Source: a virus
IMG/VR virus record: IMGVR_UViG_3300025886_000069
Strand: one strand, 5' to 3'
DNA: 40,420 nucleotides
Positions 1,451 through 35,065 of the stretch are shown here, in pieces. Position 1 is the first letter of the stretch. Every line of letters begins with the position of its first letter. The translations under genes and the position numbers were made by a program. The notes under the pieces were generated by a model, which saw only the letters and a list, made by a program, of their open reading frames with translations, searched no databases and was not told the DNA's origin.

Positions 1451-1806
1451 GTAAGACAGCAACGGCCAAGGCCAAGGGTCGAAATGGGCAACAGGAGGTC
1501 CGTGACGCAATTCTAAAGACCTTCCCCCAACTTGAGCCAGACGACGTCCGTTCTACGGCTATGGGACAGAACGGGGAGGACATTCAACTCTCCCCCACAG
1601 CCCGTAAACTTTTGCCGGTGTCTATCGAAGTGAAACGACGTAAGACTTTTAAGACCCTGTATGACTTTCAAGATCAGGCAAAACAAGACGGCAATTATGA
1701 ACCGGTGGTCTTCCTCCGGGGTGACCGGAAGCCTTGGCTTGTGGTCGTCAACATCGAACACTACTTGGAGCTTGTAGAATGTCACAGTCAGAAGAACAGT
1801 TCATAG
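1447..1806 (+). CDS. PD-(D/E)XK nuclease, Holliday-junction resolvase-like
   Basis: ATGA overlap with the upstream stop (preferred over the 1432 start). E17...D45...E61-V-K63 spacing resembles Hjc / endonuclease I-type resolvases. Confidence 0.55.
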   Translation: MSKTATAKAKGRNGQQEVRDAILKTFPQLEPDDVRSTAMGQNGEDIQLSPTARKLLPVSIEVKRRKTFKTLYDFQDQAKQDGNYEPVVFLRGDRKPWLVVVNIEHYLELVECHSQKNSS

Positions 1807-2015
1807 TTTACGGATGGGCCGAGTTGCCTGAAGGGGGGCTCTACATGACCGTTTGGGACGGTAGTAACCAAGAGTGTCAGGAGTACATCAACTCCCCTCA
1901 AGCACGGCTTGACTTAGAAATGGGAGTGTTTTACGAGTACCTAACTCTCCCGGCTGACTCCGAAGTCACACAGCTGGTGGACACCTACCCATTCGACAAC
2001 CTGACAATTCACTAG
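1779..2015 (+). CDS. Hypothetical protein
   Basis: ATG at 1779 (MSQSEEQF...) inside track ORF 1734..2015; overlaps the upstream gene by 28 nt. Confidence 0.4.
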   Translation: MSQSEEQFIVYGWAELPEGGLYMTVWDGSNQECQEYINSPQARLDLEMGVFYEYLTLPADSEVTQLVDTYPFDNLTIH

Positions 2016-2023
2016 GAGACGAC

Positions 2024-2275
2024 ATGCCCACCGAAAAAGAAGACATCGTGAACCGGCCCTCCCATTACACTAAGTACGTAATTGAGCCCGTCACCTTCAT
2101 CATGACCAACCGTCTCTCGTTTGAGATTGGTAACATTGTGAAGTATGCGTGTCGGGCAGGGGGAAAGCTATACCCTGACCAAGACGAAATCGAATCCCGC
2201 ATCACTGACCTTGAGAAGGTACGACGTTATGCGGAAATGGAAATCAACCGACTGACTGGTAAGGACGTACTGTGA
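2024..2275 (+). CDS. DUF3310-family phage protein
   Basis: GGAG SD upstream. NRPSHY...IEPVTFI...GNIVKYACRAG matches the conserved DUF3310 core as I recall it. Confidence 0.65.
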   Translation: MPTEKEDIVNRPSHYTKYVIEPVTFIMTNRLSFEIGNIVKYACRAGGKLYPDQDEIESRITDLEKVRRYAEMEINRLTGKDVL

Positions 2276-2445
2276 TGATTGAGACATTAAAAGTTGCTGC
2301 ACTGGTGGCTATGGTTTCCCCCTTTATCATTGTTGGAGCCGGAGTACTCTTGGGACTGGTGCTGGGGATTTCTCAAACCTTGCTCGGAGTAGTCTTCGGG
2401 ATGGTCATGGCTTTTCAAGGACTGGACCCGGAAGGTGATGAATAA
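2275..2445 (+). CDS. Small two-pass membrane protein (56 aa, below the ORF-track cutoff)
   Basis: TGATG start-stop overlap. Translation MIETLKVAALVAMVSPFIIVGAGVLLGLVLGISQTLLGVVFGMVMAFQGLDPEGDE. Its stop overlaps the next ATG (TAATG). Confidence 0.4.
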   Translation: MIETLKVAALVAMVSPFIIVGAGVLLGLVLGISQTLLGVVFGMVMAFQGLDPEGDE

Positions 2446-2639
2446 TGAAACTACCACATAGACTTATCATTGATGGCGTAGAGCAATGTGCCTCTGATGA
2501 TGCAGGAGAGTTTTTGAGATTGGCGCATTGGTATCTTGGTAACATGGGGCAGGAGATTGCTGAAAGCGGTATTACTCCGCAATGGGTTAATGATGTTATT
2601 GAAAGGCATAGAGGATATCCGGAAGGTGACGAAGAATGA
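2445..2639 (+). CDS. Hypothetical protein
   Basis: Translationally coupled on both sides (TAATG upstream, ATGA downstream). Confidence 0.4.
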   Translation: MKLPHRLIIDGVEQCASDDAGEFLRLAHWYLGNMGQEIAESGITPQWVNDVIERHRGYPEGDEE

Positions 2640-3076
2640 AACCAGAGTACAATCCAAACGGAACCCTCCGTACTACCTCCGCCCACTACGATGCGGTCAA
2701 AGCATTCACAGTGGCGATGGGTCAACCCGTGGGCGAAGACATCACCTCCCTTGAGACTGGGGGCCTACTCATAATGAGAATGGACCTGATTGAGGAGGAG
2801 GCGTTGGAGATAGCTGACGAACTCCCCGGTGTCTTCACTAACCGAACCCAAGAGGCTATTGACAAAGCAGCCTTTACCAAAGAGTTGGCTGACCTGCTTT
2901 ATGTGACCTACGGGATGGCCGTCACGTTTGGGCTACCACTTGACGAAGTGTTTGAGAGGGTCCATCGGTCCAACATGTCCAAACTAGATGACAACGGTAA
3001 GCCGATTTACCGGGAAGACGGAAAGGTCCTCAAGGGACCTAACTACGAGAAACCAAACTTAGACGACCTTTTCTAG
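2636..3076 (+). CDS. mazG: MazG-like all-alpha NTP pyrophosphohydrolase
   Basis: EEEALEIADE metal-binding helix, ELADLLYVTYG, VHRSNMSKL...DGKVLKGPNYEKPNL C-terminal pattern. Confidence 0.7.
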   Translation: MKPEYNPNGTLRTTSAHYDAVKAFTVAMGQPVGEDITSLETGGLLIMRMDLIEEEALEIADELPGVFTNRTQEAIDKAAFTKELADLLYVTYGMAVTFGLPLDEVFERVHRSNMSKLDDNGKPIYREDGKVLKGPNYEKPNLDDLF

Positions 3077-3195
3077 TGCTGACCCTCTTGCTATTTATCT
3101 TTGCTGCCCCCATCTTAACAGCAGCCCTGCTAGGGGTTGCCGCAGTAGTCTTTAACTTTGTGATGTGGTTACTATGCGAAATCAACAGGCGATAA
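3076..3195 (+). CDS. Putative 39-aa hydrophobic peptide
   Basis: GTG overlapping the mazG stop (TAGTG). Translation VLTLLLFIFAAPILTAALLGVAAVVFNFVMWLLCEINRR; one TM helix. Confidence 0.25.
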   Translation: MLTLLLFIFAAPILTAALLGVAAVVFNFVMWLLCEINRR

Positions 3196-3302
3196 CTTTT
3201 GCCCTGCTTATTGGTTGGTTGGCGGTGGTTATGACCACAGCACTTATGACCGTTCGAACAGAAGAAAACTTGATAAAGGAACTAATTACAAATGTCGGAT
3301 AA
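3174..3302 (+). CDS. Putative 42-aa membrane peptide
   Basis: Translation MRNQQAITFALLIGWLAVVMTTALMTVRTEENLIKELITNVG. It fills the gap before the RNR gene and overlaps its start by 11 nt. Confidence 0.25.
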   Translation: MRNQQAITFALLIGWLAVVMTTALMTVRTEENLIKELITNVG

Positions 3303-5202
3303 TCATTTGCCCACTCCGTATCAGGAGTTTATTGCTAAGTCACGGTATGCCCGTTGGCTAGAATCAGAAGGACGCCGAGAGACTTGGGCAGAGACTGTCT
3401 CACGTTACATGTCCGAGGTTGTTGGGGACAAGCTCCCGGCTCAAGAGAGAGCCAACGTGGAGAACGAAATCCTTGGTCTGGGAATCATGCCGTCAATGCG
3501 TGCAGTCATGACCGCCGGTCCAGCTCTCCACCGTGACAATACCTCGGGCTACAACTGTTCTTATCTCCCGGTGGATGACCCAAAGAGCTTTGACGAAGCT
3601 ATGTTCATTCTCCTCTGTGGGACTGGGGTAGGCTTCTCCGTAGAACGTCAATTCGTGACAAAGCTCCCGGAAGTCCCAGAGGCACTGTTCGAGAGTGAGA
3701 CCACAGTAGTTGTGAAGGATAGCAAAGAGGGTTGGGCAAAGTCCTTCCGTCAAGTTCTGTCCCTCCTGTGGGCAGGAGAGATTCCCCAGTGGGACGTCTC
3801 TAAAGTTCGTCCCTCCGGTGCTAGGCTCAAGACCTTCGGAGGACGTGCATCCGGTCCTGCTCCACTGGTTGACCTGTTCAACTTTGCTGTTGCAGTTTTC
3901 AAGAAAGCCAAGGGACGCAAGCTGACTTCCCTAGAGTGCCATGACTTGATGTGTAAAATCGGTCAGGTTGTAGTTGTGGGAGGTGTCCGACGTTCCGCAA
4001 TGATTAGCCTGTCCAACCTGTCAGATGACCGGATGCGGAATGCAAAGTCCGGCCAGTGGTGGGAGAACGAAGCACAGAGGGCTTTGGCTAACAACTCGGT
4101 TTCTTACACCGAGAAGCCAGACGTTGAGTTGTTCATGAAAGAGTGGGCTTCCCTTATCGAGTCCAAGTCCGGTGAACGTGGTATCTTCAACCGCAAGGCT
4201 GCGGAGGCACAGGCACTAAAGAACGGACGTCGGGAAGGTGGCTACGAGTGGGGGACCAACCCTTGTTCGGAAATCATCTTGCGTCCGTACCAATTCTGCA
4301 ACCTTACTGAGGTCGTCGTACGTTCTGACGACACAGTAGAAACACTTGAGGAAAAGGTACGTCTGGCCACAATTCTAGGGACCGTGCAAAGCACCTTCAC
4401 TAAGTTCCCCTACCTTCGCAAGGTCTGGCAAAAGAACACTGAGGAGGAACGTTTGTTGGGGGTCAGCCTCACCGGGATTATGGACAACCCCTTAATGACC
4501 ACTGCGAACGCAGGGTTGGAGAAAACCTTGGAGCACCTTAAGTCTGTGGCGGTAGCTACAAACAAGGAGTGGGCTGAGAAGCTTGGGGTTCAGCAGTCTG
4601 CTGCAATCACTTGTGTAAAACCTTCCGGGACAGTTTCCCAGTTGGTAGACTCTGCCTCCGGGATTCATGCCCGACACAGTGAGTTTTACATCCGTACTGT
4701 CCGGGGTGACAACAAAGACCCCCTGACAGAGTTCTTGATTGACTCCGGGGTCCCTTGTGAACCCGACGTTATGAACCCGAACACCACTACTGTGTTCTCG
4801 TTTCCGGTTAAGTCACCGGGGGGACATTGGGCTGTTGTACGTGGTGACATGACGGCCATAGAACAGTTGGAGACTTGGTTGGAGTATCAGAGGCACTGGT
4901 GTGAACATAAGCCCTCCATCACTGTTTCTGTCCGAGAGGATGAGTGGTTGGACGTTGGTGCTTTTGTCTACCGTCACTTCGACGAAATGTCCGGGGTTTC
5001 CTTCCTACCTCACTCGGACCATACCTACCAGCAAGCTCCGTATCAGGAGTGTTCCGAAGAGGATTACGAAGAGGCACTGTCTAAAATGCCAAAGCTGATT
5101 GACTGGGGCAAGCTCTCGGAGTATGAGTTGGAGGACAACACCTCCGGAATGCAGACCTTGGCCTGTTCTTCGGACGGATGTGAGATAGTGGACTTAACTT
5201 AA
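3292..5202 (+). CDS. nrdJ: Ribonucleotide reductase, class II (B12-dependent, monomeric RTPR-like)
   Basis: 636 aa with active-site loop GTNPCSEIILRPYQFCNLTEV and a C-terminal Cys pair (ACSSDGCE). No beta-subunit gene in the genome. Confidence 0.85.
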   Translation: MSDNHLPTPYQEFIAKSRYARWLESEGRRETWAETVSRYMSEVVGDKLPAQERANVENEILGLGIMPSMRAVMTAGPALHRDNTSGYNCSYLPVDDPKSFDEAMFILLCGTGVGFSVERQFVTKLPEVPEALFESETTVVVKDSKEGWAKSFRQVLSLLWAGEIPQWDVSKVRPSGARLKTFGGRASGPAPLVDLFNFAVAVFKKAKGRKLTSLECHDLMCKIGQVVVVGGVRRSAMISLSNLSDDRMRNAKSGQWWENEAQRALANNSVSYTEKPDVELFMKEWASLIESKSGERGIFNRKAAEAQALKNGRREGGYEWGTNPCSEIILRPYQFCNLTEVVVRSDDTVETLEEKVRLATILGTVQSTFTKFPYLRKVWQKNTEEERLLGVSLTGIMDNPLMTTANAGLEKTLEHLKSVAVATNKEWAEKLGVQQSAAITCVKPSGTVSQLVDSASGIHARHSEFYIRTVRGDNKDPLTEFLIDSGVPCEPDVMNPNTTTVFSFPVKSPGGHWAVVRGDMTAIEQLETWLEYQRHWCEHKPSITVSVREDEWLDVGAFVYRHFDEMSGVSFLPHSDHTYQQAPYQECSEEDYEEALSKMPKLIDWGKLSEYELEDNTSGMQTLACSSDGCEIVDLT

Positions 5203-5211
5203 GGAAAACTG

Positions 5212-5337
5212 ATGGAACCCGACTTCAAGATGTACGAGTTTATTAAGAAGGTCTTGATTGCAGCTGCCCTCGTAGCTATGTCTGCACCAGTGGTCTTCAC
5301 CTTTTTCTCCGGTGGCCCCAACTTTGTGAATGGATAG
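5212..5337 (+). CDS. Putative 41-aa membrane peptide
   Basis: Translation MEPDFKMYEFIKKVLIAAALVAMSAPVVFTFFSGGPNFVNG; one TM helix. Confidence 0.25.
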   Translation: MEPDFKMYEFIKKVLIAAALVAMSAPVVFTFFSGGPNFVNG

Positions 5338-5339
5338 TC

Positions 5340-5456
5340 ATGATTATTGAAACTCTGCACCTACTCCTCCCTTACGTTGCCGGGGCTTATGCCTCGGTGA
5401 TGTTCCTCGGTTTTGCCGGGATGCTCTTGTCATCGAAGTGGAAAAACAATGTCTGA
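5340..5456 (+). CDS. Putative 38-aa membrane peptide
   Basis: Translation MIIETLHLLLPYVAGAYASVMFLGFAGMLLSSKWKNNV; overlaps the thyX ATG by 8 nt. Confidence 0.25.
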   Translation: MIIETLHLLLPYVAGAYASVMFLGFAGMLLSSKWKNNV

Positions 5457-6090
5457 GATTAAAGCCACCTACATCCACCACTGTGGGGATGACCTAACAA
5501 CCGTGAATGCTGCCCGGGTGTCTTTCGATAAGACAAGCCCGGAACTGACTGACCGGGATAGTAAACTTATCCACTACCTAGCAGACCACCAACACCTCTC
5601 CCCTTTCGGTCATGCTTTTGTGACCTTCAAGGTGGATGCTCCTGTCTTTGTGGCCCGGCAATTGGTAAAACACCAGTACCTCCGGATGAACGAAGTAAGC
5701 CGGAGATACGTGGACAGTTCCCCAGAGTTCTACTCTCCTGATTTTTGGAGAGGGAAAGCACGGGACAAAAAACAAGGTTCCTCCGGGGTCCTTCCTCATC
5801 AGCACTTTCTAAATGGGCAGTACGACGAAGCTATGTCCCGAATGGAGAAGGTTTACGACTTCATGATTTCTCAGGGGGTAGCACCGGAACAGGCACGAAT
5901 GGTCCTCCCTCAATCCATGATGACTTCATGGTGGTGGTCAGGCTCTTTGGATGCTTTCGCCAAAATGTGCAACCTACGCATGGGGGCAGATGCACAAGCT
6001 GAGACACGGGAAGTTGCTTTGCAGGTTGCCGAGACACTGGACGAACTTTACCCGGAGTCCTTCCGGGCTCTTATGAAAGGCCAAAAGTAA
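5449..6090 (+). CDS. thyX: Flavin-dependent thymidylate synthase ThyX homologue with a divergent signature
   Basis: ATG at 5449 preferred over TTG at 5413. HLSPFGHAFVTF..., VKHQYLRMNEVSRRYV, PEQARMVLPQS..., AQAETREVA align with the ThyX fold motifs. Confidence 0.75.
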   Translation: MSEIKATYIHHCGDDLTTVNAARVSFDKTSPELTDRDSKLIHYLADHQHLSPFGHAFVTFKVDAPVFVARQLVKHQYLRMNEVSRRYVDSSPEFYSPDFWRGKARDKKQGSSGVLPHQHFLNGQYDEAMSRMEKVYDFMISQGVAPEQARMVLPQSMMTSWWWSGSLDAFAKMCNLRMGADAQAETREVALQVAETLDELYPESFRALMKGQK

Positions 6091-6317
6091 TGCCCTACAC
6101 AATTATTACCCAACCCAACTGCCCCTCCTGTCAGAAGGCAAAACAGCTTCTTAAGGACCGGGGCCTGTCTTACCAAGAGTTCGACTTAACCGACTACAAA
6201 AACAAGTTTCTCTTGGGGTTAATGCGCAAGTCCAGCCTGAACACTGTCCCACAGATTTGGGGACCAACTGGTGAATATGTCGGGGGCTTTGAAGCCTTGG
6301 AGGGATACCATGATTAA
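6090..6317 (+). CDS. Glutaredoxin
   Basis: 75 aa, CPSC redox motif near the N-terminus, TVPQIW...YVGGFEAL; TAATG-coupled to thyX. Confidence 0.8.
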   Translation: MPYTIITQPNCPSCQKAKQLLKDRGLSYQEFDLTDYKNKFLLGLMRKSSLNTVPQIWGPTGEYVGGFEALEGYHD

Positions 6318-6762
6318 AAGACCTTTTGACCCAGCTCTTTACAAGACCTACGACAAGCCCGGACGGGAGGCTCTTGTCTCTCTTCTGGAACAGTGGGGGC
6401 ATGAAATCCTTAACGTCAAGGAAAACTACAACGCAGACATCACCTCTACAAAAGAGGGCAAGGACCACTACTCCGAAGCTGAGATTAAGACAGCTTGGCA
6501 AGGGGACTGGCCGGAGAAGTGGGCAGAGGTACGGATACCGGGCCGGAAAGCCCGACTGCTCACAAAGCACGATGAAGTAACTTTCTACGTGTTCTCCAAC
6601 GACTGTTCCCGAGTGTGGGTCATCCGGGGGGACCAGTTGGACCCGAGGGGCTTACGTCCTGCGTTCGGCCCTAACATTCACCGGGGAGAGTTGTTCTTCC
6701 ATATCCCAGTTACTGACATTCAAGAGGTTCGTTTTGCGGAAGATACGTGGAAAGAAGTCTAA
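6310..6762 (+). CDS. Hypothetical protein, possible PD-(D/E)XK fold
   Basis: ATG at 6310 overlaps the glutaredoxin stop region. ADITS...x13...EAEIK resembles a D...ExK core (weak). Confidence 0.45.
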   Translation: MIKRPFDPALYKTYDKPGREALVSLLEQWGHEILNVKENYNADITSTKEGKDHYSEAEIKTAWQGDWPEKWAEVRIPGRKARLLTKHDEVTFYVFSNDCSRVWVIRGDQLDPRGLRPAFGPNIHRGELFFHIPVTDIQEVRFAEDTWKEV

Positions 6763-7414
6763 GTCAAGTTTCAACCAAACCTTCCCACAGCTGGAGGCTA
6801 AGACGGAGACACAAAGGGCCTACCTAAATTCCCTAAGTGTTTACGACCAAACAATCGTGCTTGGACCTGCGGGGACTGGTAAGACTTACATTGCTGCGTC
6901 CTTTGCAGCCCTTGCACTCAAGTCCGGGGACATTAGTAAGATTGTCATCACCCGTCCTCATGTCGCAGTAGGAAAGGACCTTGGACACCTTCCCGGAACC
7001 GTGTTGGAGAAAACCGTACCTTGGGCTCTGCCTACTCTGGACGTATTGGAGAAATGGTTGGGCAAGGGTGCAGTGGATACCGGACTCAAGAACGGTAAGA
7101 TTGAGATTGCACCTCTGGCCTTGATGCGGGGGAGGTCCTTTGAGGACTCTTTCATAATCGTTGACGAAGCACAGAACATTTCTGTGGCAGAGGTTAAGAT
7201 GCTGGTCACCCGAGTTGGGCAAGGTTCCAAACTTGTTCTGAACGGTGACGTGCAGCAGTCCGACTTACGGGGGTCCAATGGCTTGGAGACACTTATCAGC
7301 TTGAGTGAGAAGTACAACGTCTCGGCTCCGGTTATTGAGTTCTCTGTGGATGACATTGTCCGGTCTGACATTTGTAAGGCTTGGATTGTAGCTTTCATGT
7401 CGGAAGGAATTTAA
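6734..7414 (+). CDS. phoH: PhoH-like ATPase
   Basis: Walker A GPAGTGKTY, ITRP...LGHLPG..EK..PW, PLALMRGRSF, IVDEAQN, NGDVQQSDL. Start uncertain: TTG at 6734 and no in-frame ATG near it. Confidence 0.85.
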   Translation: MRKIRGKKSKSSFNQTFPQLEAKTETQRAYLNSLSVYDQTIVLGPAGTGKTYIAASFAALALKSGDISKIVITRPHVAVGKDLGHLPGTVLEKTVPWALPTLDVLEKWLGKGAVDTGLKNGKIEIAPLALMRGRSFEDSFIIVDEAQNISVAEVKMLVTRVGQGSKLVLNGDVQQSDLRGSNGLETLISLSEKYNVSAPVIEFSVDDIVRSDICKAWIVAFMSEGI

Positions 7415-8471: not shown

Positions 8472-9107
8472 ATGAAAAACGTACTTCTCTCTCTCGTTCT
8501 GGTCCTCGGGCTCTCGGGTATCTCCCAAGCCCGTACACTGCCCACTTTCAAAGTTTGTGCTGAACAAGCTAACAACGGCTGGATCCTTTACGGTATCCCA
8601 TCCTCCACTCACGTTGTCTGGGACACCCGGGAAACCGTAGGTCCCCTAATCGGAAACGGTAACTGTCAGGAAGGCTGGTCCGAGGAAGATAAGGTAGACT
8701 TCCGGCTCTCCTCCGAAATGCCACGTAAGTTTTGCCCGAGTGTTCACAGCTGGACCCTCGTATCCCCAGAAGGTGTAGCCGTCCAAGGGGCTACCTCTCC
8801 GGTTTATCCTTGCCGAGTAGCACCGAAGGAAACCGGTGGTAAGCCCTTGGGTAGTCGGGGAAAAGTGAAAGCTGCAAAAACGGGAGACGGCTCAGACACC
8901 GGGTCAGACGATGGAACCGACACCGACACTGACACCGACACTGGTACCGACACTGGTACCGACACTGACACCGACACTGGTACCGGGTCAGACGATGGCT
9001 CAGGTGGTAACCCTTGCGGAGGGAACTGTGGCAACGGTAACGGCAACGGAGGCGGTAACGGGACCGGCAACGAAGGTGGTGGCAACGACTCCCACCCACA
9101 CCGGTGA
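8472..9107 (+). CDS. Secreted Cys-containing protein with a Thr-Asp / Gly-Asn low-complexity tail
   Basis: Signal peptide MKNVLLSLVLVLGLSGISQA/RT. C-terminus GTDTDTDTDTGTDTGTDTDTDTGTG...GNGNGNGGGNGTGNEGGGN. Confidence 0.6.
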   Translation: MKNVLLSLVLVLGLSGISQARTLPTFKVCAEQANNGWILYGIPSSTHVVWDTRETVGPLIGNGNCQEGWSEEDKVDFRLSSEMPRKFCPSVHSWTLVSPEGVAVQGATSPVYPCRVAPKETGGKPLGSRGKVKAAKTGDGSDTGSDDGTDTDTDTDTGTDTGTDTDTDTGTGSDDGSGGNPCGGNCGNGNGNGGGNGTGNEGGGNDSHPHR

Positions 9108-9133
9108 AGCCTAGCCGTTAAGTGACTGTCCAA

Positions 9134-9173
9134 GGGGACACTGGGGTTTTTTGACTCTGGTGTCCCTTTTTTT
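9134..9173 (+). terminator. Rho-independent terminator
   Basis: GGGGACACTGG / CTGGTGTCCC stem (two G-U pairs) followed by T7. Confidence 0.6.
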
Positions 9174-9184
9174 GTTCAGGGGTG

Positions 9185-9213
9185 TTGACTTCCGGGTCAG
9201 CAGTTATTAAATA
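9185..9213 (+). promoter_or_regulatory. Candidate sigma70-type promoter TTGACT-N17-TAAATA
   Basis: Read directly; lies between the terminator and the SD-led ORF at 9241. Confidence 0.35.
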
Positions 9214-9240
9214 CTATTTATCGAAACGAAAGGACTCAAC

Positions 9241-9432
9241 ATGAACAACTCAATCCAGTGGGCTTACACAGCAGGCGGCAACGATGCTTACTACGGTAGG
9301 AACTGCTCTGCTAACTTTTACGTAAACGGTAACGTCCTCCGAGGTACACAGGTCACAAACCTCACAGAGGAAGAACGTGAAGCCTACCTTGAAGGTTACA
9401 ACGACGAAACCGATGGAAAGGACTGGGGCTAA
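9241..9432 (+). CDS. Hypothetical small protein
   Basis: AAAGGA SD upstream. 63 aa of natural-looking composition (…EEEREAYLEGYNDETDGKDWG). Confidence 0.5.
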   Translation: MNNSIQWAYTAGGNDAYYGRNCSANFYVNGNVLRGTQVTNLTEEEREAYLEGYNDETDGKDWG

Positions 9433-9605
9433 TGGTTGACGTCTGGGACCAGAAAACTTGGAAGGACCTCAGGGTCCTCCGTACCGAACTCCGAGAGGAA
9501 CTGTTCGATTGCACAGACCCCAAGCTTGAGGCTTCACTACAAGCCCAGCTGAACTCGGTACAAAGTGATATAGAGCAGGGGTTGACCGTACAGGTCCCCT
9601 TTTGA
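9432..9605 (+). CDS. Hypothetical small helical protein (57 aa, not in the ORF track)
   Basis: TAATG coupling. Translation MVDVWDQKTWKDLRVLRTELREELFDCTDPKLEASLQAQLNSVQSDIEQGLTVQVPF. Confidence 0.4.
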   Translation: MVDVWDQKTWKDLRVLRTELREELFDCTDPKLEASLQAQLNSVQSDIEQGLTVQVPF

Positions 9606-9673
9606 GCTACTACAGCCTCCAGAGAGGCGAGGCTTAAAATTGATACTGCAACCAAGTTTGATACTTTAGGCAC
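9603..9673 (-). repeat. Left arm of a 71-bp imperfect inverted repeat (partner 11353-11423)
   Basis: The reverse complement aligns with 11353-11423 without gaps, 60/71 identical. Encodes VPKVSNLVAVSILSLASLEAVVAQ. Confidence 0.9.
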
Positions 9674-9682
9674 TCTAACGAA
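9656..9682 (+). repeat. 27-bp perfect direct repeat, copy 1 (GTTTGATACTTTAGGCACTCTAACGAA)
   Basis: Identical to 9912-9938. Confidence 0.95.
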
Positions 9683-9747
9683 ATTGGGATTGTCAGACTC
9701 CCTGCCTCTTGGCTAAAGCTCTGGCTCTCTCCTCCTCCCAAACTTAG

Positions 9748-9781
9748 GGCCTCCAGTGGAAACACCGGGGGCCTCTTTTTT
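9748..9781 (+). terminator. Rho-independent terminator
   Basis: GGCCTCCAGTG-GAAA-CACCGGGGGCC stem-loop (one mismatch, one G-U pair) followed by TCTTTTTT. Confidence 0.6.
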
Positions 9782-9911
9782 GTCTAGGCTTCGGTAGCCC
9801 CAGAAGCCCCACACAGGGGCTCTAACTTATGGGTGGTGTGGTTACCCATCTGGAATAGTTAATGGCTGTCAGTGGCCTTTCTAGGGGGCTCTCTAGGGGG
9901 CTGGACTCGGT

Positions 9912-9938
9912 GTTTGATACTTTAGGCACTCTAACGAA
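9912..9938 (+). repeat. 27-bp perfect direct repeat, copy 2
   Basis: Identical to 9656-9682. Confidence 0.95.
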
Positions 9939-9953
9939 CTTTCCAAGGTGTCC

Positions 9954-9988
9954 GGGGGACCAGACGGGGGAAGTGACGGGGAGGGGGG
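9954..9988 (+). other. Canonical G-quadruplex motif G5-N7-G5-N7-G4-N1-G6
   Basis: GGGGGACCAGACGGGGGAAGTGACGGGGAGGGGGG read directly. Confidence 0.5.
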
Positions 9989-10124
9989 TTGTTCTTTTGA
10001 GTCAATGGGTTGGCTTGGGAACTGTGAGTAAAATGCTCACGTTTTTACGAGAGGGGGGCTCTGGTGGGGCTATGGTATTGGCTGCAAAATTGCACCTTGA
10101 GTTGCAAGATTTCTTATGAACTAT

Positions 10125-10516
10125 CGTTTTAGGATATGCCAAAATAGCTAAACTTTGGCTCAAACCAGAGCCTAACCTAAAGTAGTACCCCGACGAGAAA
10201 TAGATAAAATTTTAGTCAAATTGTTTTTCAACTGACACGGGTGTCCCGACGAAAGTTACCTAAAGTTTGACTCAAGTTTTACCACTACTCAAACGGGTGT
10301 CCCGACGGAAGTTACCTAAAGTTTGACTCAAGTTTTACCACTACTCAAACGGGTGTCTCTCCAAAAGTTACCTAAAGTTTGACTCAAGTTTTATCACCAC
10401 CCCAAGGTGTACTCCGACGGAAGATAGCTAAAATTAGAGCTAAAGTTTTCCTCTCGTAAAACGAGTGTCCCGACTAAAGATAGCTAAAATTAGAGCTAAA
10501 GTTTTCCTCTCGTATT
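10125..10516 (+). repeat. Seven tandem 56-bp iterons in two sub-families
   Basis: Units begin at 10125, 10181, 10237, 10293, 10349, 10405 and 10461. Units 10237 and 10293 are 55/56 identical. Shared core ACGGGTGTCCCGACG-AAG-TA(C/G)CTAAA-...-AAGTTTT. Confidence 0.9.
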
Positions 10517-10980
10517 TTGACTACGCAAAAGTCATACCGTTTATTTTGTCTCAAATTTTATGCAACTCTCGATTGAGTCCCAGACACCAGAGCCCTTCCG
10601 CAGTGAAGCCGGGGGTCATTCCAAAAGTACGGGGGGTACTTGAGATAGACTGACTGAACACTGGGGTATCCTTTTCGAATCACTTTCCCTGATCTGAGGT
10701 TGTAGTTTTCCGGAGGGACTCTCGTTTTAACCTAGACTTGTACCGTTCCCAATTAGCTCAAACTTTAGTCTTTACTTTAGCACTGTGACACTGGGGCAAC
10801 ACTGGGGGAACTCCGGTGGGTAGGTTCTACTTTTTGGATACGTCGGAAGACGGGAGTGGGTCCCTCAGGGTTCTAGGGGACGTTGTGGGGGCCTTGGGCT
10901 TACGGTTACATTTCCAAAATAAAAAAATAAGTTGTGACTACACAAAAAAGGAAAGCTGAATTGAACGGTACGAATGCCTT

Positions 10981-11094
10981 ACCAGAGTCCCACCAGAGCC
11001 CCACTAGAGTCCCACTAGAGCCCCACTAGGGGCATACCAGAGTACCATACCAGAGCACCTTACCAGAGTCCCACTAGAGTCATACTAGAGCTAA
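10981..11094 (+). repeat. About ten tandem 11-bp repeats, AC(C/T)AGAG(T/C)CCC
   Basis: accagagtccc accagagcccc actagagtccc actagagcccc actaggggcat accagagtacc ... accagagtccc actagagtcat actagagctaa. Confidence 0.9.
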
Positions 11095-11346
11095 AACCCC
11101 AGTAAAACCGTAGCTAAACCCCAGACCTCCTAACCCTCTAAATCGTAAACCCTTGAAATCCTTGGGTTTTCCCTACCGTAACCATATGTCTAAAAAAAGA
11201 GGTATATATTACTATAGTAAGAACTAGAGTTAAGGCCTCTAGAGTTACAACAAGGAAAACCGGTTAAGGTTAATTCCTAATAATTAATTTGCTAAGAGTC
11301 TTAAGGGTCCTTAAGGAAAACTTTAGTAAGGACTCTTGTAAGGACT

Positions 11347-11910
11347 TTGACAGTGCCTAAAGTATCAAATTTATTTGTAGTATTAATTTTAAGCCTTACC
11401 TCTTTAGGAGCTGTAGTAGCTCAGACTACGAATTATTCAGTAGAGGTTGAGCCTTACGTTATCGTAGTAGACAATGATCTCCGAGACGTAAGCCGAACAA
11501 TCAGCATCGACTCTGACAGTACCAAAAGAACCCTTGTGGTTAATAATCAAAACTTCAAGATTAAATCCAATTCTGGTTTTGTAGTAGAGCTTAGAATGCC
11601 AATGGATTTGGTTAGGGGCTACTGTGTCCCTGTCTTCAGGAATGACTCTAGTAATACCTATGTCAAAGCTGAGTTGATTGTCCGTGCGGGGAAGTCCCTT
11701 TATGACTCCCGTGGCCCTTCGTTCAACCACCTTACAAGAGGCGTTGTCATTGACTGCGACTCATCCGGAGTGGGAAGCCTCCTCATCACTAGACCTGAGC
11801 CAAGCCTTTCCCCTCTGGAATTTACAATCTGGTTAGCATTCCCAGCCGGGGAGCACTTAGCCGGAACCTACGATTTTACCATTCAGGTTTTCCCTCAAGT
11901 TATTGAATAG
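11347..11910 (+). CDS. Secreted beta-rich protein of unknown function (AT-rich moron)
   Basis: TTG at 11347 or GTG at 11353. Signal peptide KVSNLFVVLILSLTSLGAVVAQ/TT. Visibly more AT-rich than its neighbours. C-terminus ...AGTYDFTIQVFPQVIE. Confidence 0.6.
   Translation: MTVPKVSNLFVVLILSLTSLGAVVAQTTNYSVEVEPYVIVVDNDLRDVSRTISIDSDSTKRTLVVNNQNFKIKSNSGFVVELRMPMDLVRGYCVPVFRNDSSNTYVKAELIVRAGKSLYDSRGPSFNHLTRGVVIDCDSSGVGSLLITRPEPSLSPLEFTIWLAFPAGEHLAGTYDFTIQVFPQVIE
11353..11423 (+). repeat. Right arm of the 71-bp inverted repeat (start codon plus signal-peptide codons of the 11347 gene)
   Basis: See the left arm at 9603-9673. Confidence 0.9.
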
Positions 11911-11932
11911 GGCAATTTACGGAAACGAGAAC

Positions 11933-12331
11933 ATGCCAGAAAAACTCCCATACAAAAAGCCGATTGGAAACAAGATCAGACGCCTTATCAAGGCGGGTGT
12001 CTCCATGAAAGACATTTGTGCCGATGTTCAAGGTATGAAGGATGCTCCAAGTTCCCCAACCTCCATCTACAAAATCTACGGTGCTGACATCGCAGAAGCC
12101 CGTTCAGAAATCTTTGAGGCTGTAGGTGACCGAGTGGTCAACCAAGCTCTCCACGGTGACCCCAAGGAAGCAGCTACCTTTAAAAGCCAAGAGCTCTTCC
12201 TCCGGTCTAAAGCCGGTTGGTCTCCTACCAGCACAGTCCAAGAGCAGGAAATCACCGAAGACCCTGACACAGACCTCTCGGCGATTGATGAACTCATGAA
12301 TCTTCTGGGAAAATCTACCTCGGAGGAGTAA
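11933..12331 (+). CDS. terS: Terminase small subunit
   Basis: Lies immediately upstream of terL. N-terminal HTH-like IRRLIKAGVSMKDICADV. ...ATFKSQELFLRSKAGWSPT resembles the conserved TerS segment. ATG at 11933 preferred over TTG at 11903. Confidence 0.6.
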   Translation: MPEKLPYKKPIGNKIRRLIKAGVSMKDICADVQGMKDAPSSPTSIYKIYGADIAEARSEIFEAVGDRVVNQALHGDPKEAATFKSQELFLRSKAGWSPTSTVQEQEITEDPDTDLSAIDELMNLLGKSTSEE

Positions 12332-12346
12332 CCCCGAGGAACCCGA

Positions 12347-13711
12347 ATGACCTATAAGATTCCACCTATCACAGCACAGACTTTAAGAGAGCTCCCGGAC
12401 GAACAAGTCCAAGCAGCACTTACAGCCCTTGGGCCAGAGAAGGTAGCAGAGCTTCAACACTCTTGGGAGTTTTGGGCTAGACCTGACCAGCTAGAGCCTA
12501 GAGGCAAAGACTGGAACATCTGGCTTGCACTTGCTGGACGTGGTTGGGGCAAGACCCGAGCCGGAGCCGAGTGGGTAAGACACCGGGTAAAATCCGGTGA
12601 TAAAATCATTCATGCTGTAGCCCCTACAAAAGGGGACGTCCGGAAGGTTATGGTTGAGGGTGACTCTGGACTCCTAAACGTTTGCTGGTCCGGAGACAAG
12701 ACCTACAAGGGTGTCCCGATGGGGGCTCCGGGATGGTCTCCGACAAACAACACAATCACTTGGGCCAACGGTGCAAGGTGTGTGTTCTTCTCAGCAGAGG
12801 ACCCGGAGAGACTTCGTGGACCTCAGTGTCATTCGGCTTGGACTGATGAGCTTTGTGCTTGGAGAAATGCACAGATGACTTGGGACATGATGATGTTCGG
12901 CCTCCGGTTGGGCAAGCATCCCCAAGTGTTCATCACCACCACCCCGAAGACCACTAAGCTCATTCGAAACATCATCGGTGACCCCAAGACGATAGTTACC
13001 AAGGGTAGCACCTTCGACAACTCGGCTAACCTTGCAGACACCTTCCTTGATGCTGTTAAGGCTACCTACGAAGGGACTCGGTTGGGTAGACAAGAGCTCT
13101 ACGCAGAAATCCTAGACGAAGCCTCCGGTGCTCTTTGGAACCGAACCCTGCTTGCCTCCTGTGAGGTTGAGCCAGACGACGTTCCAGACTTGAACCGTAT
13201 CGTAGTCTCAATTGACCCCGCAGTCTCAGCTAATGCAGAGTCCGACATGACAGGCATTGTTGTTGCTGGTGTCGATATCAATGGCAAGGCTTACGTCTTA
13301 GCAGACCACACTGATCGTTGTAGTCCCCAAGAGTGGGCTGCAAAAGCTATTCACCTTTATCATGAATATTCGGCTGACCGGATTGTCGCAGAGAAAAACC
13401 AAGGTGGGGACATGGTTCGTCACACCCTACACACCGAGGACCCTACCGTCCCGGTTAAATTGGTACATGCTTCCCGGGGCAAGATGGCCAGAGCCGAGCC
13501 GGTGTCTGCCCTGTACGAACAGGGTAAGGTTTACCATGTCAGAGGTCTTAACGACCTTGAGGATCAAATGGTCCAGTGGGAACCTTTGGGGTCTACGGGC
13601 TCCCCTGACCGGTTGGATGCTATGGTGTGGGCAATTACTGACTTGGCCCTTAACGGCTACGCCAAACCCCAGCTAAGGCTTGCTTACAGCTCTGCACAGG
13701 GTTTGAGGTAA
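12347..13711 (+). CDS. terL: Terminase large subunit (GTA/PBSX-like family)
   Basis: WEFWARPDQ..P...W..WLALAGRGWGKTRAGAEWV (Walker A region), TDELCAW (Walker B), C-terminal nuclease half with VSIDPA and DRLDAMVWA. Confidence 0.9.
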   Translation: MTYKIPPITAQTLRELPDEQVQAALTALGPEKVAELQHSWEFWARPDQLEPRGKDWNIWLALAGRGWGKTRAGAEWVRHRVKSGDKIIHAVAPTKGDVRKVMVEGDSGLLNVCWSGDKTYKGVPMGAPGWSPTNNTITWANGARCVFFSAEDPERLRGPQCHSAWTDELCAWRNAQMTWDMMMFGLRLGKHPQVFITTTPKTTKLIRNIIGDPKTIVTKGSTFDNSANLADTFLDAVKATYEGTRLGRQELYAEILDEASGALWNRTLLASCEVEPDDVPDLNRIVVSIDPAVSANAESDMTGIVVAGVDINGKAYVLADHTDRCSPQEWAAKAIHLYHEYSADRIVAEKNQGGDMVRHTLHTEDPTVPVKLVHASRGKMARAEPVSALYEQGKVYHVRGLNDLEDQMVQWEPLGSTGSPDRLDAMVWAITDLALNGYAKPQLRLAYSSAQGLR

Positions 13712-24843: not shown

Positions 24844-27393
24844 ATGGCTAAATATGAGCTGGTCTTAGGGACTGCTGAACTAGACACACCAATCACTCTC
24901 TCCGTACTAGAGTCCTCTGGACCCAAGGGAGAGACTGGGGACACCGGCCCACAAGGTCCTCAAGGTATCCAAGGGGATCAGGGGATTCAGGGGGCCACTG
25001 GTCTCACTGGTGCAACGGGTCCTACAGGTGCCACAGGTGCAGGGTTTACCGGAGGCTCCTACTCAGTAGGCACCGGTGTTGTTACCTTCACCTCCGCAGA
25101 TGGCCTTGGCTTTGTTACCGGGGACCTTCGGGGAGCCGATGGCACCAACGGAACAGACGGAACAAACGGGACTGGCTTTACCGGAGGCTCCTACAATGCT
25201 TCCACCGGTGTTGTTACCTTTACCTCTACAGATGGCCTTGGCTTTGTCACCGGGGACCTTCGGGGAGCCGATGGTCTGGGTACAGGTACGGTTGAATCTG
25301 TAGCTACGGGCTCCGGGTTGACGGGTGGCCCTGTCACCACAACCGGCACAATTTCCCATGCTGACACTTCTACTCAGCTTTCCCTTACTGCCCTGACTGG
25401 TGCAGACGTAGTCTCCGACGTAGACCTTGATGATTTCGGACACGTCACAGCACTTGCTACCCGGACCATGCTCCTGTCAGACCTCGGGTACACCGGGGAA
25501 ACCAATGCCACAGCTGACCAAACAGGTGCAGAGATTAAGTCTGCCTACGAAGCTGAGTTGGACACCAACGCCTACACCGATGCAGAGAAATCAAAGCTTG
25601 CTGGTGTAGAAGCTTCCGCAGATGTAACCGATACCGTCAACGTAACCGCAGCCGGTGCTTTGATGGACTCAGAGCTAACGGCTATCTCCTCAGTCAAGGC
25701 TCTGGACCAAGGTGTAGCAACTACGGATAGCCCTGCTTTTGCAGGACTTACGGTAGACACCAACACCATCAAAGTTGACTCCATTAATAACCGGGTTGGT
25801 ATCGTTCAAGCTGTTCCTACTGAGTCTCTGGACGTTGTTGGTAATATCGCAGTCTCCGGTACGGTAGACGGACGGGACCTTGCTACAGACGGCTCCAAGC
25901 TGGACGGTATCGAAGCAGGGGCAACAGGTGACCAGACAGGGGCAGAGATTAAGTCTGCCTACGAAGCTGAGTTGGACACCAATGCTTACACCGACACAGA
26001 GAAATCAAAGCTTGCCGGGATTGAGGCCGCAGCAGATGTTACGGATTCAACAAATGTAACCGCAGCCGGTGCTTTGATGGACTCAGAGCTAACGGCTATC
26101 TCCTCAGTCAAGGCATTAAACCAAGGTGTAGCAACGACGGATAGTCCGGGCTTCGTGAACCTGACTCTCTCAGGTGACCTTACCGTAAACGGTACGACAA
26201 CAACCCTAGACACTGCAAACCTGACAGTAGACGACTCCCTGATTGAGTTATCCCGTAACACCGCAGCAGCTCCTGTAAATGATGCTGGTATTGTTATTGA
26301 ACGGGGAACCTCGGACAATGCTTTCATCGGTTGGGACGAAAGTGTTGACAAGTTCGTAGTAGGAACCGGGACATTTACCGGAGCCACTACAGGAAACCTT
26401 ACAGTTACCACAGGGACACTTGTGGCCAACCTTGAGGGGACCGTGGACGGGCGTAACATCACAACGGACGGCTCCAAGCTGGACGGTATTGAGTCCGGAG
26501 CTACAGCTGACCAGACAGGGGCAGAGATTAAAGCAGCTTACGAAGCTGAACTTAACGCCTTTACCGATGCACAATTCACTAAGCTCTCAGGTATCGAGAC
26601 AGGGGCTACAGCAGACCAAACCGGTGCAGAGATTAAAGCAGCTTACGAAGCTGAACTTAACGCCTTTACCGATGCACAATTCACTAAGCTCTCAGGTATC
26701 GAGACAGGGGCTACAGCAGACCAGACAGGGGCAGAGATTAAAGCAGCTTACGAGGCTGAACTTAACGCATTTACTGATGCACAATTCACTAAGCTCTCAG
26801 GTATCGAGACAGGGGCTACAGCTGACCAGACGGGGGCAGAGATTAAGACTTCCCTGTTTGCCGAGGCTGACACCAACAACCTGACCGATACCCTGCTTAC
26901 CAAGTTGAACGGAGTCGAAGCCTCTGCGGATGTAACGGATTCAACAAACGTAACCGCAGCCGGTGCTTTGATGGACTCAGAGCTAACAGCCATTGCTTCC
27001 GTCAAGGCTCTGGACCAAGGTGTAGCAACTACGGACAGTCCTACCTTCGTGGCCGTGTCAGACAGCACCGGGAACCTTCGGGATATCCCACAGACAACCA
27101 AGACAGCAGCCTATGTTCTGGTCATTGGTGATGCAGGGACTCATATCTCAATCACCACCGGTGGGATCACGGTAAACCCCAACGTCTTCCAAGTGGGTGA
27201 CGCAGTGTCCATCTACAATGACTCTGGTGCTAGTCAAACCATAACACAGGGTACGAACTGCACTCTGCGTCTTGCAGGTACGACCACAACGGGGAACTTA
27301 ACCTTGGCAGAGTACGGGGTGTGTACCATTCTCTGCGTCAAAGACGTAACAGATGCAGACGTGTTTGTAGTTACCGGGGGAGGAATCAGCTAA
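24844..27393 (+). CDS. Tail fibre with a collagen-like stalk and nested repeat modules
   Basis: 13 consecutive G-X-Y triplets (aa 26-65). 44-aa repeat x2 (GFTGGSY...GDLRGADG). About 75-aa module x3 (…VTAAGALMDSELTAISSVKALDQGVATTDSP). 35-aa tandem repeat x3-4. Confidence 0.8.
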   Translation: MAKYELVLGTAELDTPITLSVLESSGPKGETGDTGPQGPQGIQGDQGIQGATGLTGATGPTGATGAGFTGGSYSVGTGVVTFTSADGLGFVTGDLRGADGTNGTDGTNGTGFTGGSYNASTGVVTFTSTDGLGFVTGDLRGADGLGTGTVESVATGSGLTGGPVTTTGTISHADTSTQLSLTALTGADVVSDVDLDDFGHVTALATRTMLLSDLGYTGETNATADQTGAEIKSAYEAELDTNAYTDAEKSKLAGVEASADVTDTVNVTAAGALMDSELTAISSVKALDQGVATTDSPAFAGLTVDTNTIKVDSINNRVGIVQAVPTESLDVVGNIAVSGTVDGRDLATDGSKLDGIEAGATGDQTGAEIKSAYEAELDTNAYTDTEKSKLAGIEAAADVTDSTNVTAAGALMDSELTAISSVKALNQGVATTDSPGFVNLTLSGDLTVNGTTTTLDTANLTVDDSLIELSRNTAAAPVNDAGIVIERGTSDNAFIGWDESVDKFVVGTGTFTGATTGNLTVTTGTLVANLEGTVDGRNITTDGSKLDGIESGATADQTGAEIKAAYEAELNAFTDAQFTKLSGIETGATADQTGAEIKAAYEAELNAFTDAQFTKLSGIETGATADQTGAEIKAAYEAELNAFTDAQFTKLSGIETGATADQTGAEIKTSLFAEADTNNLTDTLLTKLNGVEASADVTDSTNVTAAGALMDSELTAIASVKALDQGVATTDSPTFVAVSDSTGNLRDIPQTTKTAAYVLVIGDAGTHISITTGGITVNPNVFQVGDAVSIYNDSGASQTITQGTNCTLRLAGTTTTGNLTLAEYGVCTILCVKDVTDADVFVVTGGGIS
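24919..25038 (+). repeat. Collagen-like (G-X-Y)13 coding repeat
   Basis: GPKGETGDTGPQGPQGIQGDQGIQGATGLTGATGPTGATG. Confidence 0.9.
26497..26845 (+). repeat. 105-bp tandem repeat, three near-identical copies plus a diverged fourth
   Basis: GCAGAGATTA recurs at 26521, 26626, 26731 and 26836. Each copy encodes GATADQTGAEIKAAYEAELNAFTDAQFTKLSGIET. Confidence 0.9.
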
Positions 27394-34792: not shown

Positions 34793-35052
34793 AGAACTTT
34801 AAAGAGATAGAACAAGCAGCCCGGGACCAGCTGGTAGAAGCCCACCTTAAGACTGTAGGTGCCACGATTTGCCCACCGGCAACTCACTCCGAAACAGTGT
34901 CACCCAAGCTACCCTCTGCGGAGGACCGGGTAATGCGAAGTGACTACTACGCCTCCCTCACGTACCGGGAGCTTAACGGGTTGGAGCTTGCCTCTTGCAC
35001 CGAGGACGGTGTAGACGAAAGCCAGAAGAAAGGTAAGACAGGTGACGAATAA
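34789..35052 (+). CDS. Hypothetical early protein
   Basis: ATGA coupling; 87 aa. Confidence 0.45.
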   Translation: MKNFKEIEQAARDQLVEAHLKTVGATICPPATHSETVSPKLPSAEDRVMRSDYYASLTYRELNGLELASCTEDGVDESQKKGKTGDE

Positions 35053-35065
35053 AGAGCAGACGGAC

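Follow-up and report, generated by a model that had tools for sequence, protein, structure and literature searches.

Introduction

Among the phage control sites described so far, the packaging signal (pac) of SPP1 offers a precedent for the locus treated here. It consists of three sets of direct repeats that extend over promoters and the start of the small terminase gene terS, and its reader, like that of the SF6 site, is a ring-shaped TerS with peripheral helix-turn-helix (HTH) domains; both sites overlap the terS promoters (PMC4737164). In both phages the signal (pacL-pacC-pacR) is non-coding, opens the packaging operon and comprises several short direct-repeat sets. The same holds for positions 9606–11346 of a viral genome of 40,420 nucleotides (IMG/VR record IMGVR_UViG_3300025886_000069), called the window below wherever this entire stretch of DNA is meant. 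The dimensions differ, however. The SPP1 site measures about 300 bp and overlaps terS, whereas the region in the window extends over 1.7 kb and is separated from terS by a gene of 560 bp. Likewise, SPP1 has two to three repeats per set, compared with at least 17 strictly phased repeats here.

In phage P1, clusters of short elements flank the cleavage point on both sides, and cleavage is controlled by the methylation of sites within the pac repeats. The region resembles this system in that motif copies in both orientations surround its centre, GANTC is found in half of the repeats and one of the phage's genes codes for an N6/N4 methylase. Unlike the region, P1 pac is only 162 bp long and lies inside the terS-equivalent gene, and the enrichment of GANTC is modest here. 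Iteron-type replication origins such as lambda ori, P1 oriR/incA and RK2 oriV also share features with the region, namely many copies of one motif at varied spacing with an AT-rich tract beside them.

A repeat-rich control region in front of the terminase genes is an expected phage feature, and the region is a large, well-organised new example of it. Our preferred reading, which is tentative and falls somewhat short of an even chance, is that it brings together the terminator of the early genes, the promoter of the late ones and a platform on which a ring-shaped, Sf6-like TerS would recognise the DNA multivalently for packaging.

A gene-free region at the early-to-late boundary

As the original prediction had proposed, no credible open reading frame (ORF) exists in 9606–11346. 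ORFs in the region do not exceed 85 amino acids, and their codon scores range from −0.02 to −0.32 bits per codon, compared with +0.06 to +0.50 for the real genes. The three longest ORF-free stretches on the plus strand of the genome (693, 345 and 256 bp) are all located here, while all others are at most 215 bp long. Further apparent gaps at 22.27–22.59, 28.43–28.69 and 34.24–35.04 kb were discarded because by eye they look like small genes or coding sequence, which codon scores of +0.22 to +0.29 bear out only for three ORFs at 34.37–35.05 kb.

Positions 1–127 of the window are identical to positions 40294–40420 (127 nt), with the junction cut inside a gene, and the window is thus a circularly assembled complete genome of ~40.3 kb. 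Judged by its sequence, the source is a CRP-6-type Roseobacter podovirus, that is, a marine roseophage: the nearest isolate by the large terminase subunit TerL is Roseobacter phage CRP-6 (81% amino acid identity), followed by isolates below 50%. CRP-6 belongs to the podoviruses of the marine RCA lineage and founded the “CRP-6-type” phages, which in coastal viromes rank with the more abundant groups of roseophages (PMC6918029).

All credible genes are on the plus strand. An early block extends from ~34.3 kb across the junction to 9.6 kb and contains a sigma-like ORF, the genes of a T7-like replisome (primase-helicase, family A polymerase and 5'–3' exonuclease) and those for methylase, MazG, RNR, ThyX and PhoH, besides small ORFs. 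The single late block of ~23 kb (11.35–34.24 kb) comprises an accessory gene, terS, terL, a Mu-type portal gene, and head and tail genes. The region therefore lies between two transcription units, with the terminator of the early operon on one side and the operon of the accessory gene (“moron”), terS and terL on the other. Both this position and the terminator had been recognised before; the latter is a hairpin at ~9746–9774 followed by a U-run (z = −2.4), and the gene order downstream is borne out by domain matches for TerL and by a weak fold match for TerS. At the reverse, late-to-early boundary at 34.25 kb, only ~120 bp hold a terminator followed by promoter-like sequence. Since this boundary manages with so little and the region is the only sizeable non-coding stretch, any additional cis-acting functions must reside either here or inside genes. 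A length of 1.7 kb greatly exceeds the needs of one terminator and one promoter, and the region must have cis-acting functions besides these two.

One motif underlies the repeat arrays

Seven 56-bp iterons and about ten 11-bp repeats had been listed as different elements. Both are present, but they are not separate, as one core motif is common to both. This 9-bp motif family, ACNRGWGYC, was missed in the original prediction; the 56-bp units, the 11-bp array and two inverted pairs are all built on it. The 1.74-kb region contains 17 copies (9.8 per kb), 13 of them on the plus strand, compared with 62 copies in the remaining 38.5 kb (1.6 per kb). The motif occurs once per 56-bp unit (as AAACGRGWGTC), in each 11-bp repeat and in an inverted pair at 10054–10075; by eye, near-matches outside the scored pattern are found in a conserved block, ACGGGAGTGGGTCCC, and in a tandem pair at 9880–9902. 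The inverted pair belongs to two minus-strand copies of the 11-bp motif at 10052–10077, which are 88% complementary to 10980–11005.

The seven 56-bp units are arranged in register on the plus strand at 10133–10524; three are of type A, two belong to type B and two are degenerate. All of them contain CTAAAGTTT boxes plus the AAACGRGWGTC core, and a CGGG-TGT-CCCG palindrome is formed at type-A/type-A junctions. The sequence AAACTTTAG occurs seven times (0.56 expected), in every case inside the region. Unit number is polymorphic: the strain L172 (an ENA contig) has eight units owing to an extra type-B unit at 10413 and is otherwise identical across the region, and the strain L082 differs from the window here by only two single-nucleotide polymorphisms (SNPs). 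The ~ten 11-bp repeats, C(C/T)AGAG(T/C)CCCA, are located on the plus strand at 10977–11090 and keep their phase except for one slip of 13 bp. They yield 13 pattern matches where 3.4 are expected, a number reached in none of 100 shuffles.

Two other identities of the arrays were considered and rejected. A CRISPR array is incompatible with whole 56-bp units that are near-identical throughout, which leaves no spacers. An array of GANTC methylation sites was dismissed as well; GANTC density peaks in the region, where 15 sites are found, but the enrichment is modest (about 2.4-fold; about 2.4 standard deviations), and the specificity of the methylase cannot be inferred.

The best-conserved non-coding core of the region is located at 10847–10976 on the plus strand (GGAGTGGGTCCC ... 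ATTTCCAAAATAAAAAAATAAGTT..GACTACACAAAAAAGGAAAGCTGA ... AATGCCTTACCAGAG). It shares 73–80% identity, with long invariant runs, with the relatives L002, L003 and L083, and two of its elements, GGGWCCC and TTCCAAMATAAAAAAA, recur across the wider family including CRP-6. Downstream of the 11-bp array follows an AT-rich leader, the probable late-promoter tract, at 11131–11346 on the plus strand. As had been noted from the sequence, it is AT-rich (34.7% GC compared with 51% for the genome) and dense in TAAGG (six in 216 bp compared with 1.3 per kb genome-wide), and it contains the palindrome TCCTTAAGGA at 11308–11317 as well as two copies of GTAAGGACT. The near-palindrome TATTACTATAGTAAGA at 11207–11222 is unique in the genome, encloses the sole CTATAG of the 40.3 kb and is identical in L002 and L003. 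In many relatives, TACTATAGTA recurs ~90 bp upstream of terS.

The gap upstream of terS in related phages

TerL-anchored searches returned 160 loci of relatives, and 71 non-redundant gaps were used for motif comparison. Nearly all relatives with enough upstream sequence possess a gap of 0.5–0.9 kb directly upstream of terS that is free of plus-strand ORFs. By sequence comparison, 9606–11346 is an expanded, 1.7-kb form of this family gap. Several elements recur at similar distances among the 71 gaps: TGGGACCCT (44 of 71), CAACATAAAAAA, GCTACCCACTTAAGT, TATAAAATAGTT and, ~90 bp from terS, TACTTAAGTATATACTATAGTA.

Within the closest clade (L001/L002, L179 plus L003, and L083; TerL identity 91–94%), the sequences are collinear over the whole gap. 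Islands of 73–89% identity comprise the unit core, the block 10847–11059 and the palindrome TATTACTATAGTAAGA. The region is thus not variable filler: it aligns collinearly with the gap of L002 and with that of L179 plus L003, and it shares conserved islands with them. ACNRGWGYC is enriched in these gaps, too, by ~5–7-fold in L002 and L003 and with ~6 versus 2 copies per kb in L083. Units homologous to the 56-bp units measure 70–71 bp in L002 and L003, and behind the conserved core, L002, L003 and L083 have homologous short-repeat arrays with drifted units (e.g., CTGGAGTCACA). The L003-lineage gap also contains an extremely basic micro-ORF of 41 amino acids, MRQKTRNPVAKAVRTLRPQRTKNRKKYTRKGRGRRKPVDEP (L179, ~11670–11800), which is absent from the window.

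Long tandem arrays are restricted to the clade of the window and a second clade with 83% TerL identity, where 12-, 24- or 48-bp repeats of CCCTGGnnCC reach up to 15 copies. CRP-6 lacks tandem arrays and, by eye, has a single degenerate copy of the site. The primase-helicase module of the 83% clade lies on the opposite strand, which makes the gap a divergent intergenic region; even so, the conserved core remains ~400–450 bp from terS. A representative of this clade, L012, has the primase-helicase and two other genes on the opposite strand (1531–6780) and contains a second repeat-dense intergenic region, composed of 17-bp ATTTCTATCGGGGGCCA repeats and CCTGG arrays, just upstream of the primase-helicase gene.

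Attempts to extend the comparison beyond these loci added little. A blastn search with 9400–11500 against 50,697 phage records gave no match, and a pattern search with the conserved core for more members of the clade recovered the same five contigs only. Contig look-ups based on TerS yielded one further strain that is near-identical, besides contigs stopping short of the gap. Loci anchored on PhoH, among which the same early module with another packaging module was sought, comprised the same clade only, the remainder being unrelated phages.

Contigs tend to end close to this position. By a count from the locus tables, the end lies 450–1200 bp upstream of terS in about 10 of the 26 contigs above 20 kb, which is far above chance. 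A fixed genome end in the gap was considered and rejected: the contig ends lie at differing, non-homologous positions, other contigs read through, and one break coincides with a tandem unit, L179 and L003 from one sample sharing an exact overlap of 105 nt that ends at the first 70-bp unit. Two further loci start inside 12-bp arrays. We therefore attribute the clustering to repeats that break assemblies, not to physical termini, and tandem repeats are the likely cause of the frequent assembly breaks just upstream of terS in CRP-6-type metagenomes. Another contig, Ga0222717_10000202 (L119/L120, 52.5 kb), carries terL twice at a distance of 45.3 kb, and the two copies share 96.5% identity in the sequence checked upstream of terS; this assembly circles the genome more than once, passing through two strain variants, and stops 459 bp upstream of terS.

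A proposed role in packaging recognition and late transcription

We propose that the region is the main cis-acting hub at the early-to-late boundary. Transcription of the early operon would stop at a CU-rich element and the intrinsic terminator (9686–9790). The following ~1.2 kb with at least 17 ACNRGWGYC copies, mostly in one orientation, comprise two inverted pairs, the seven or eight units of 56 bp, the core block with its GGGTCCC palindrome and A-tract, and the ~ten 11-bp-phased repeats. The AT-rich tract with the TACTATAGTA family palindrome and the TAAGG repeats could then provide the promoter and the leader for the late operon, which would express the accessory gene, terS, terL and the structural genes. 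The motif copies might together be bound, in a multivalent manner, by an oligomeric DNA-binding protein of the phage, for which a TerS ring is the most likely candidate. With one repeat per helical turn, the array of ten could present itself to successive HTH domains of such a ring on one face of ~110 bp of wrapped DNA. Binding of TerS would mark the concatemer for the first cut by TerL, i.e., for a pac-type start of packaging, and the nearby conserved palindromes are candidate sites for cutting or for a regulator.

Several observations favour this model, foremost the link to terS, the phasing of the repeats and the predicted structure of TerS. The gap adjoins terS across the family, with one accessory gene in between in the lineage of the window, and it remains there despite the inverted replication module of the 83% clade, which favours a role in packaging or as late promoter. 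Short repeats of a kind suited to HTH proteins are present in the form of the 11-bp array and the further motif copies. Array sequences drift among lineages whose TerS proteins are 50–80% identical, whereas the flanking core is fixed. The putative TerS (142 amino acids; 11903–12331, plus strand), encoded directly upstream of terL, has no sequence match in Pfam, PHROG, NCBIfam or PDB. Its predicted structure (pLDDT 76) has an N-terminal HTH followed by long helices, and the top four matches in a fold search all are to Sf6 TerS gp1, albeit weak (probability at most 0.91, E 0.13, TM ~0.33), with other TerS-like structures next. TerL (12347–13711, plus strand) is identified by matches to the Terminase_6N and Terminase_6C domains. 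It has no sequence match in PDB, and its listed phage relatives give no packaging class; the C-terminal part shares 50% identity over 41% of the query with a terminase of Methanosarcina virus MetMV that is annotated as belonging to a gene-transfer agent. This likeness and the Mu-type portal are compatible with headful packaging.

Other findings weigh against a TerS platform. The DNA-binding domains of SF6 and SPP1 TerS have little sequence specificity for pac DNA (PMC4737164), so that repeats near terS are no proof of recognition by TerS. As long arrays are limited to two clades and absent in CRP-6, they cannot be essential to packaging in the family. In the window lineage the 560-bp accessory gene intervenes between the region and terS, and the fold match of TerS is weak, as stated above. 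The related CCTGG-type repeats of the 83% clade stand next to the primase-helicase gene as well, a position that is more in keeping with an origin or a regulator than with TerS. Moreover, the number of 56-bp units varies in otherwise identical strains, as neutral slippage would give.

A more specific version of the model, in which the ~110-bp array, together with the motif of the 56-bp units, is a sequence-specific substrate that makes a single wrap around a ring of TerS HTH domains, appears distinctly unlikely to us. Nucleosome-like wrapping models for TerS rings have been reviewed (PMC9611059), and if this version were true, the region would offer a clean system for studying the disputed “nucleosome-like” recognition by TerS rings in abundant marine phages.

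Inverted gene-start copies and a CU-rich element

The left part of the region contains features that were absent from the original prediction. A 72-nt inverted repeat of 85% identity brackets the region (9603–9674 and 11352–11423). Its right arm equals the first 72 nt of the accessory secreted-protein gene, and the left arm, together with a 14-nt extension (9603–9688, plus strand), repeats the start of this gene (11353–11910) from −10 to +72 in inverted orientation. A second inverted gene-start copy of 30 nt is located at 9903–9941 on the plus strand. It explains the perfect 27-bp direct repeat reported earlier, which extends to 30 bp at 97% (9656–9685 and 9912–9941) and whose 18-bp core occurs three times compared with 0.01 expected. 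Both copies are lineage-specific insertions: the left arm is missing in L002 (global alignment) and L179, and the 30-nt copy is missing in L002; the left arm is retained unchanged in L082 and L172. A minus-strand ORF of 103 amino acids at 9362–9673 starts with the duplicated signal peptide MPKVSNLVAVSILSLASLEAVVAQ and is antisense to the two small plus-strand genes at 9241–9605; with a codon score of ~0, it is probably not a gene.

On a plus-strand transcript, both copies would be antisense to the ribosome-binding and start region of the accessory gene, and the RNA duplex predicted for the two arms has a free energy of −102.8 kcal/mol. Translation of the T4 lysozyme gene e is controlled by the pairing of an upstream sequence with the gene's start in early read-through transcripts. 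By analogy, the upstream copies could silence the start of a late gene, and transcripts from a nearer late promoter would lack them. Pairing at gene e is local, however, whereas the partners in the window are 1.4–1.7 kb apart and the copies occur in one lineage only. Silencing in cis by these copies is a long shot in our estimation; if it did occur, the inverted copies would silence the accessory gene over 1.4–1.7 kb on early read-through transcripts. The two antisense insertions are an unexplained feature that is worth an experiment.

Two other systems were considered for the arms and rejected. Arms of 72 nt could belong to an invertible DNA switch of the fim/hin type, but the window, L082 and L172 all have the same orientation; no recombinase domain was found among the 35 proteins scanned. 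A diversity-generating retroelement, raised by the substitution pattern of the arms, was dismissed as no reverse-transcriptase domain was present among the same 35 proteins.

Another feature not noticed before is a CU-rich element, CUCUCCUCCUCCCAAACUUAGGG. Together with the intrinsic terminator behind it, where the early operon ends, it spans 9686–9790 on the plus strand and is a candidate small RNA or 3'-end element. Its full sequence just 5' of the terminator reads CUCUCCUCCUCCC AAACUUAGGG. In L002 and L179 the CU-rich boxes, CCCUCCCAACUYAGG and a terminator are retained despite only ~60–78% identity around them, and AACTTAGG plus a terminator is found also in the CRP-6 subclade.

MmgR is a 77-nt, Hfq-dependent small RNA with an anti-Shine-Dalgarno motif (PMC7143759). 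The Rfam model of this RNA (RF00519, mmgR/suhB; alpha-r8/MmgR) weakly matches 9717–9788 (24.8 bits, under the gathering score of 41; E 0.0035–0.026 depending on the search space). The likeness consists in a plus-strand element of ~75 nt that matches model positions 1–77, with an anti-Shine-Dalgarno-type CUCCUCCC box and ACUUAGGGCC leading into the terminator; as in alpha-r8/MmgR, a single-stranded CCUCCUCCC-type box (9729–9741) is followed by a hairpin and a U-run, and the host group of the phage is alphaproteobacterial. The match was not reproduced in L001 (L002 lineage), CRP-6 or four other relatives. An exact-pattern scan for the CU-rich element in 185,579 genomes gave no alphaproteobacterial counterpart, with hits only in unrelated Firmicutes and other metagenome-assembled genomes. 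A short RNA ending at the terminator at 9787 is conceivable, although we rather doubt it. The CU-rich, terminator-proximal element likewise lacks an explanation and deserves experimental attention.

Upstream of the 56-bp units, three smaller features were recorded. A tandem pair of 12-bp repeats, TCTAGGGGGCTC, occupies 9880–9902 on the minus strand; its inverted likeness to the array motif was seen by eye and is unscored, and L002 has a tandem pair of different sequence, two copies of CTTCACAGGGG, at the collinear place. The G-quadruplex motif at 9954–9988 (plus strand) is real as a motif and one of two in the genome, both within the region. It belongs to a G-run-rich segment (9800–10130) with nine runs of at least four G, in which G-runs are fivefold enriched on the plus strand; at the aligned position L002 has other, shorter G-runs. 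Of the GC hairpins proposed earlier, short 6-bp stems and a terminator-like hairpin at 10023–10041 were recovered, the latter with a T-run (10023–10050, plus strand; terminator scan), but there is no excess folding energy.

Alternative explanations

The original prediction had named a replication origin, a pac/cos site and a long non-coding RNA as options without settling on one. The main rival to packaging is a replication origin, which we regard as rather less probable. Here, the motif copies would be iterons for a phage or host initiator and the 216-bp AT-rich tract would be the unwinding element; transcription from nearby promoters, possibly with an R-loop over the G-rich plus strand, would load the T7-type primase-helicase. 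The repeats indeed adjoin an AT-rich tract, and motif copies occur in both orientations around the central array. However, their periods of 11 and 56 bp differ from the ~22-bp spacing of classical iterons, and the region contains neither a DnaA box (at most one mismatch) nor a CtrA box. No Rep-, O- or DnaA-like initiator gene was found among the proteins scanned, which include the neighbours, replication-module proteins and some of the small ORFs. The T7-like replisome is in favour of an origin. In T7, a replisome of this type starts from promoters, not iterons. The fivefold enrichment of G-runs would fit as well, but the G-quadruplex motif is apparently not kept in L002, and GC skew gives just a minor local maximum. 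Similarly, the region is the only large non-coding stretch available, and the 83% clade has a divergent gap and the second repeat-dense region by the primase-helicase gene, yet the gap follows terS and not the replication genes upon module rearrangement. Alternatively, the region might be a purely transcriptional switch, in which arrays and palindromes act as operators or enhancers for a phage regulator or the sigma-like factor and time the change from early to late expression. This is unlikely in our view, despite a location that precisely separates the terminator of the early genes from the single late operon of 23 kb. No sigma-70 consensus promoter was found on the plus strand from 9000 to 12400, which suggests that the late promoter is factor-dependent, and by eye good sigma-70-like promoters are present in the same gap of relatives. 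Short palindromes (CTTAAG-type and TACTATAGTA) with a spacing of 10–12 bp occur upstream of terS family-wide. On the other hand, more than 17 sites over 1.2 kb far exceed known phage operators, and the other operon boundary manages with ~120 bp. The candidate regulator, a 189-amino-acid ORF at 35042–35611 located behind three small ORFs in the early operon, weakly matches the ECF sigma-70 model TIGR02937, but remains below the cut-off (25 compared with 42.9 bits).

Some of the evidence would also fit a mostly neutral expansion, with a small functional core (terminator, conserved block, promoter) amid slippage satellites and duplication scars. Unit number differs in near-identical strains, arrays are lineage-specific with drifting sequences, the inverted gene-start copies are recent insertions, and the repeats break metagenome assemblies, as at the overlap of L179 and L003. 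Nevertheless, the motif core is retained in every unit across three diverged lineages, and the region is near-invariant in three strains from different samples (two SNPs and one unit in 1.74 kb). A compact 40-kb genome with overlapping genes is moreover unlikely to carry 4% useless DNA, and we consider this explanation quite unlikely. Least probable of all is a long structured non-coding RNA across the region, which the original prediction had deemed possible; we give it hardly any credence. The 72-nt arms could close such an RNA as a terminal stem bracketing 1.68 kb, and six of their nine substitutions give G–U pairs on the plus strand; however, six wobble-compatible transitions out of eight are not significant (binomial p ~0.15), and the left arm is a recent insertion missing in the nearest relatives. 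The segment of 56-bp units folds better than its shuffles (z = −2.55), but the other segments remain at shuffle level (z = +1.05, −1.13 and −0.61), and neither covariation nor a conserved structure is seen in the best-conserved block (weak RNAalifold result). Two terminator-like hairpins lie inside the region, and nowhere in the whole window was an Rfam gathering score reached (GOLLD, ROOL, HEARO, OLE, introns and others). Searches for tRNA and tmRNA found neither.

Neighbouring genes and further observations

The accessory secreted-protein gene between the region and terS (11347–11910, plus strand) probably starts with GTG at 11353 and encodes a signal-peptide-like N-terminus. Its codon score of 0.06 is the lowest among the real genes, and homologues (~55%) were found only in L001–L003. 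In L083, the slot between gap and terS holds an ORF of the HNH-AP2 endonuclease type (1347–1850), as judged by HNH-like sequence motifs only, and a leftover of the start region of the secreted-protein gene is visible at ~1040–1090.

Upstream of the region, the gene at 8472–9107 encodes a secreted protein with low-complexity Thr-Asp and Gly-Asn repeats. Compared with the window, L082 shows an in-frame length change of 42 nt in this gene, which also contains most inter-strain SNPs. A strong terminator-like hairpin of 17 pairs (9132–9169) follows behind it, and the two small genes at 9241–9605 are thus flanked by two terminators. In the late block, a 105-bp tandem repeat (3.4 copies, 93% matches; 26485–26846) is located within a gene for a collagen-like fibre of 849 amino acids. 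The best PDB sequence match of the N6/N4 methylase (37265–38398) is CcrM, over 68 residues only. GATC occurs at 36 sites genome-wide, compared with ~158 expected from the length.

Implications for CRP-6-type phages

A phage sigma factor encoded at 35042–35611, if true, could account for the missing consensus late promoter. Under the preferred reading of the region, a phage protein, most likely TerS, would bind the motif copies, and the start of packaging and the late promoter would be placed side by side in front of the terminase genes. For the family as a whole, a conserved core consisting of GGGWCCC, TTCCAAMATAAAAAAA and TACTATAGTA can now be defined, as well as one lineage in which the binding motif is greatly amplified. 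The region marks the near-certain site of the origin, packaging and late-promoter signals of CRP-6-type phages, a phage group that is ecologically important and has been little studied.

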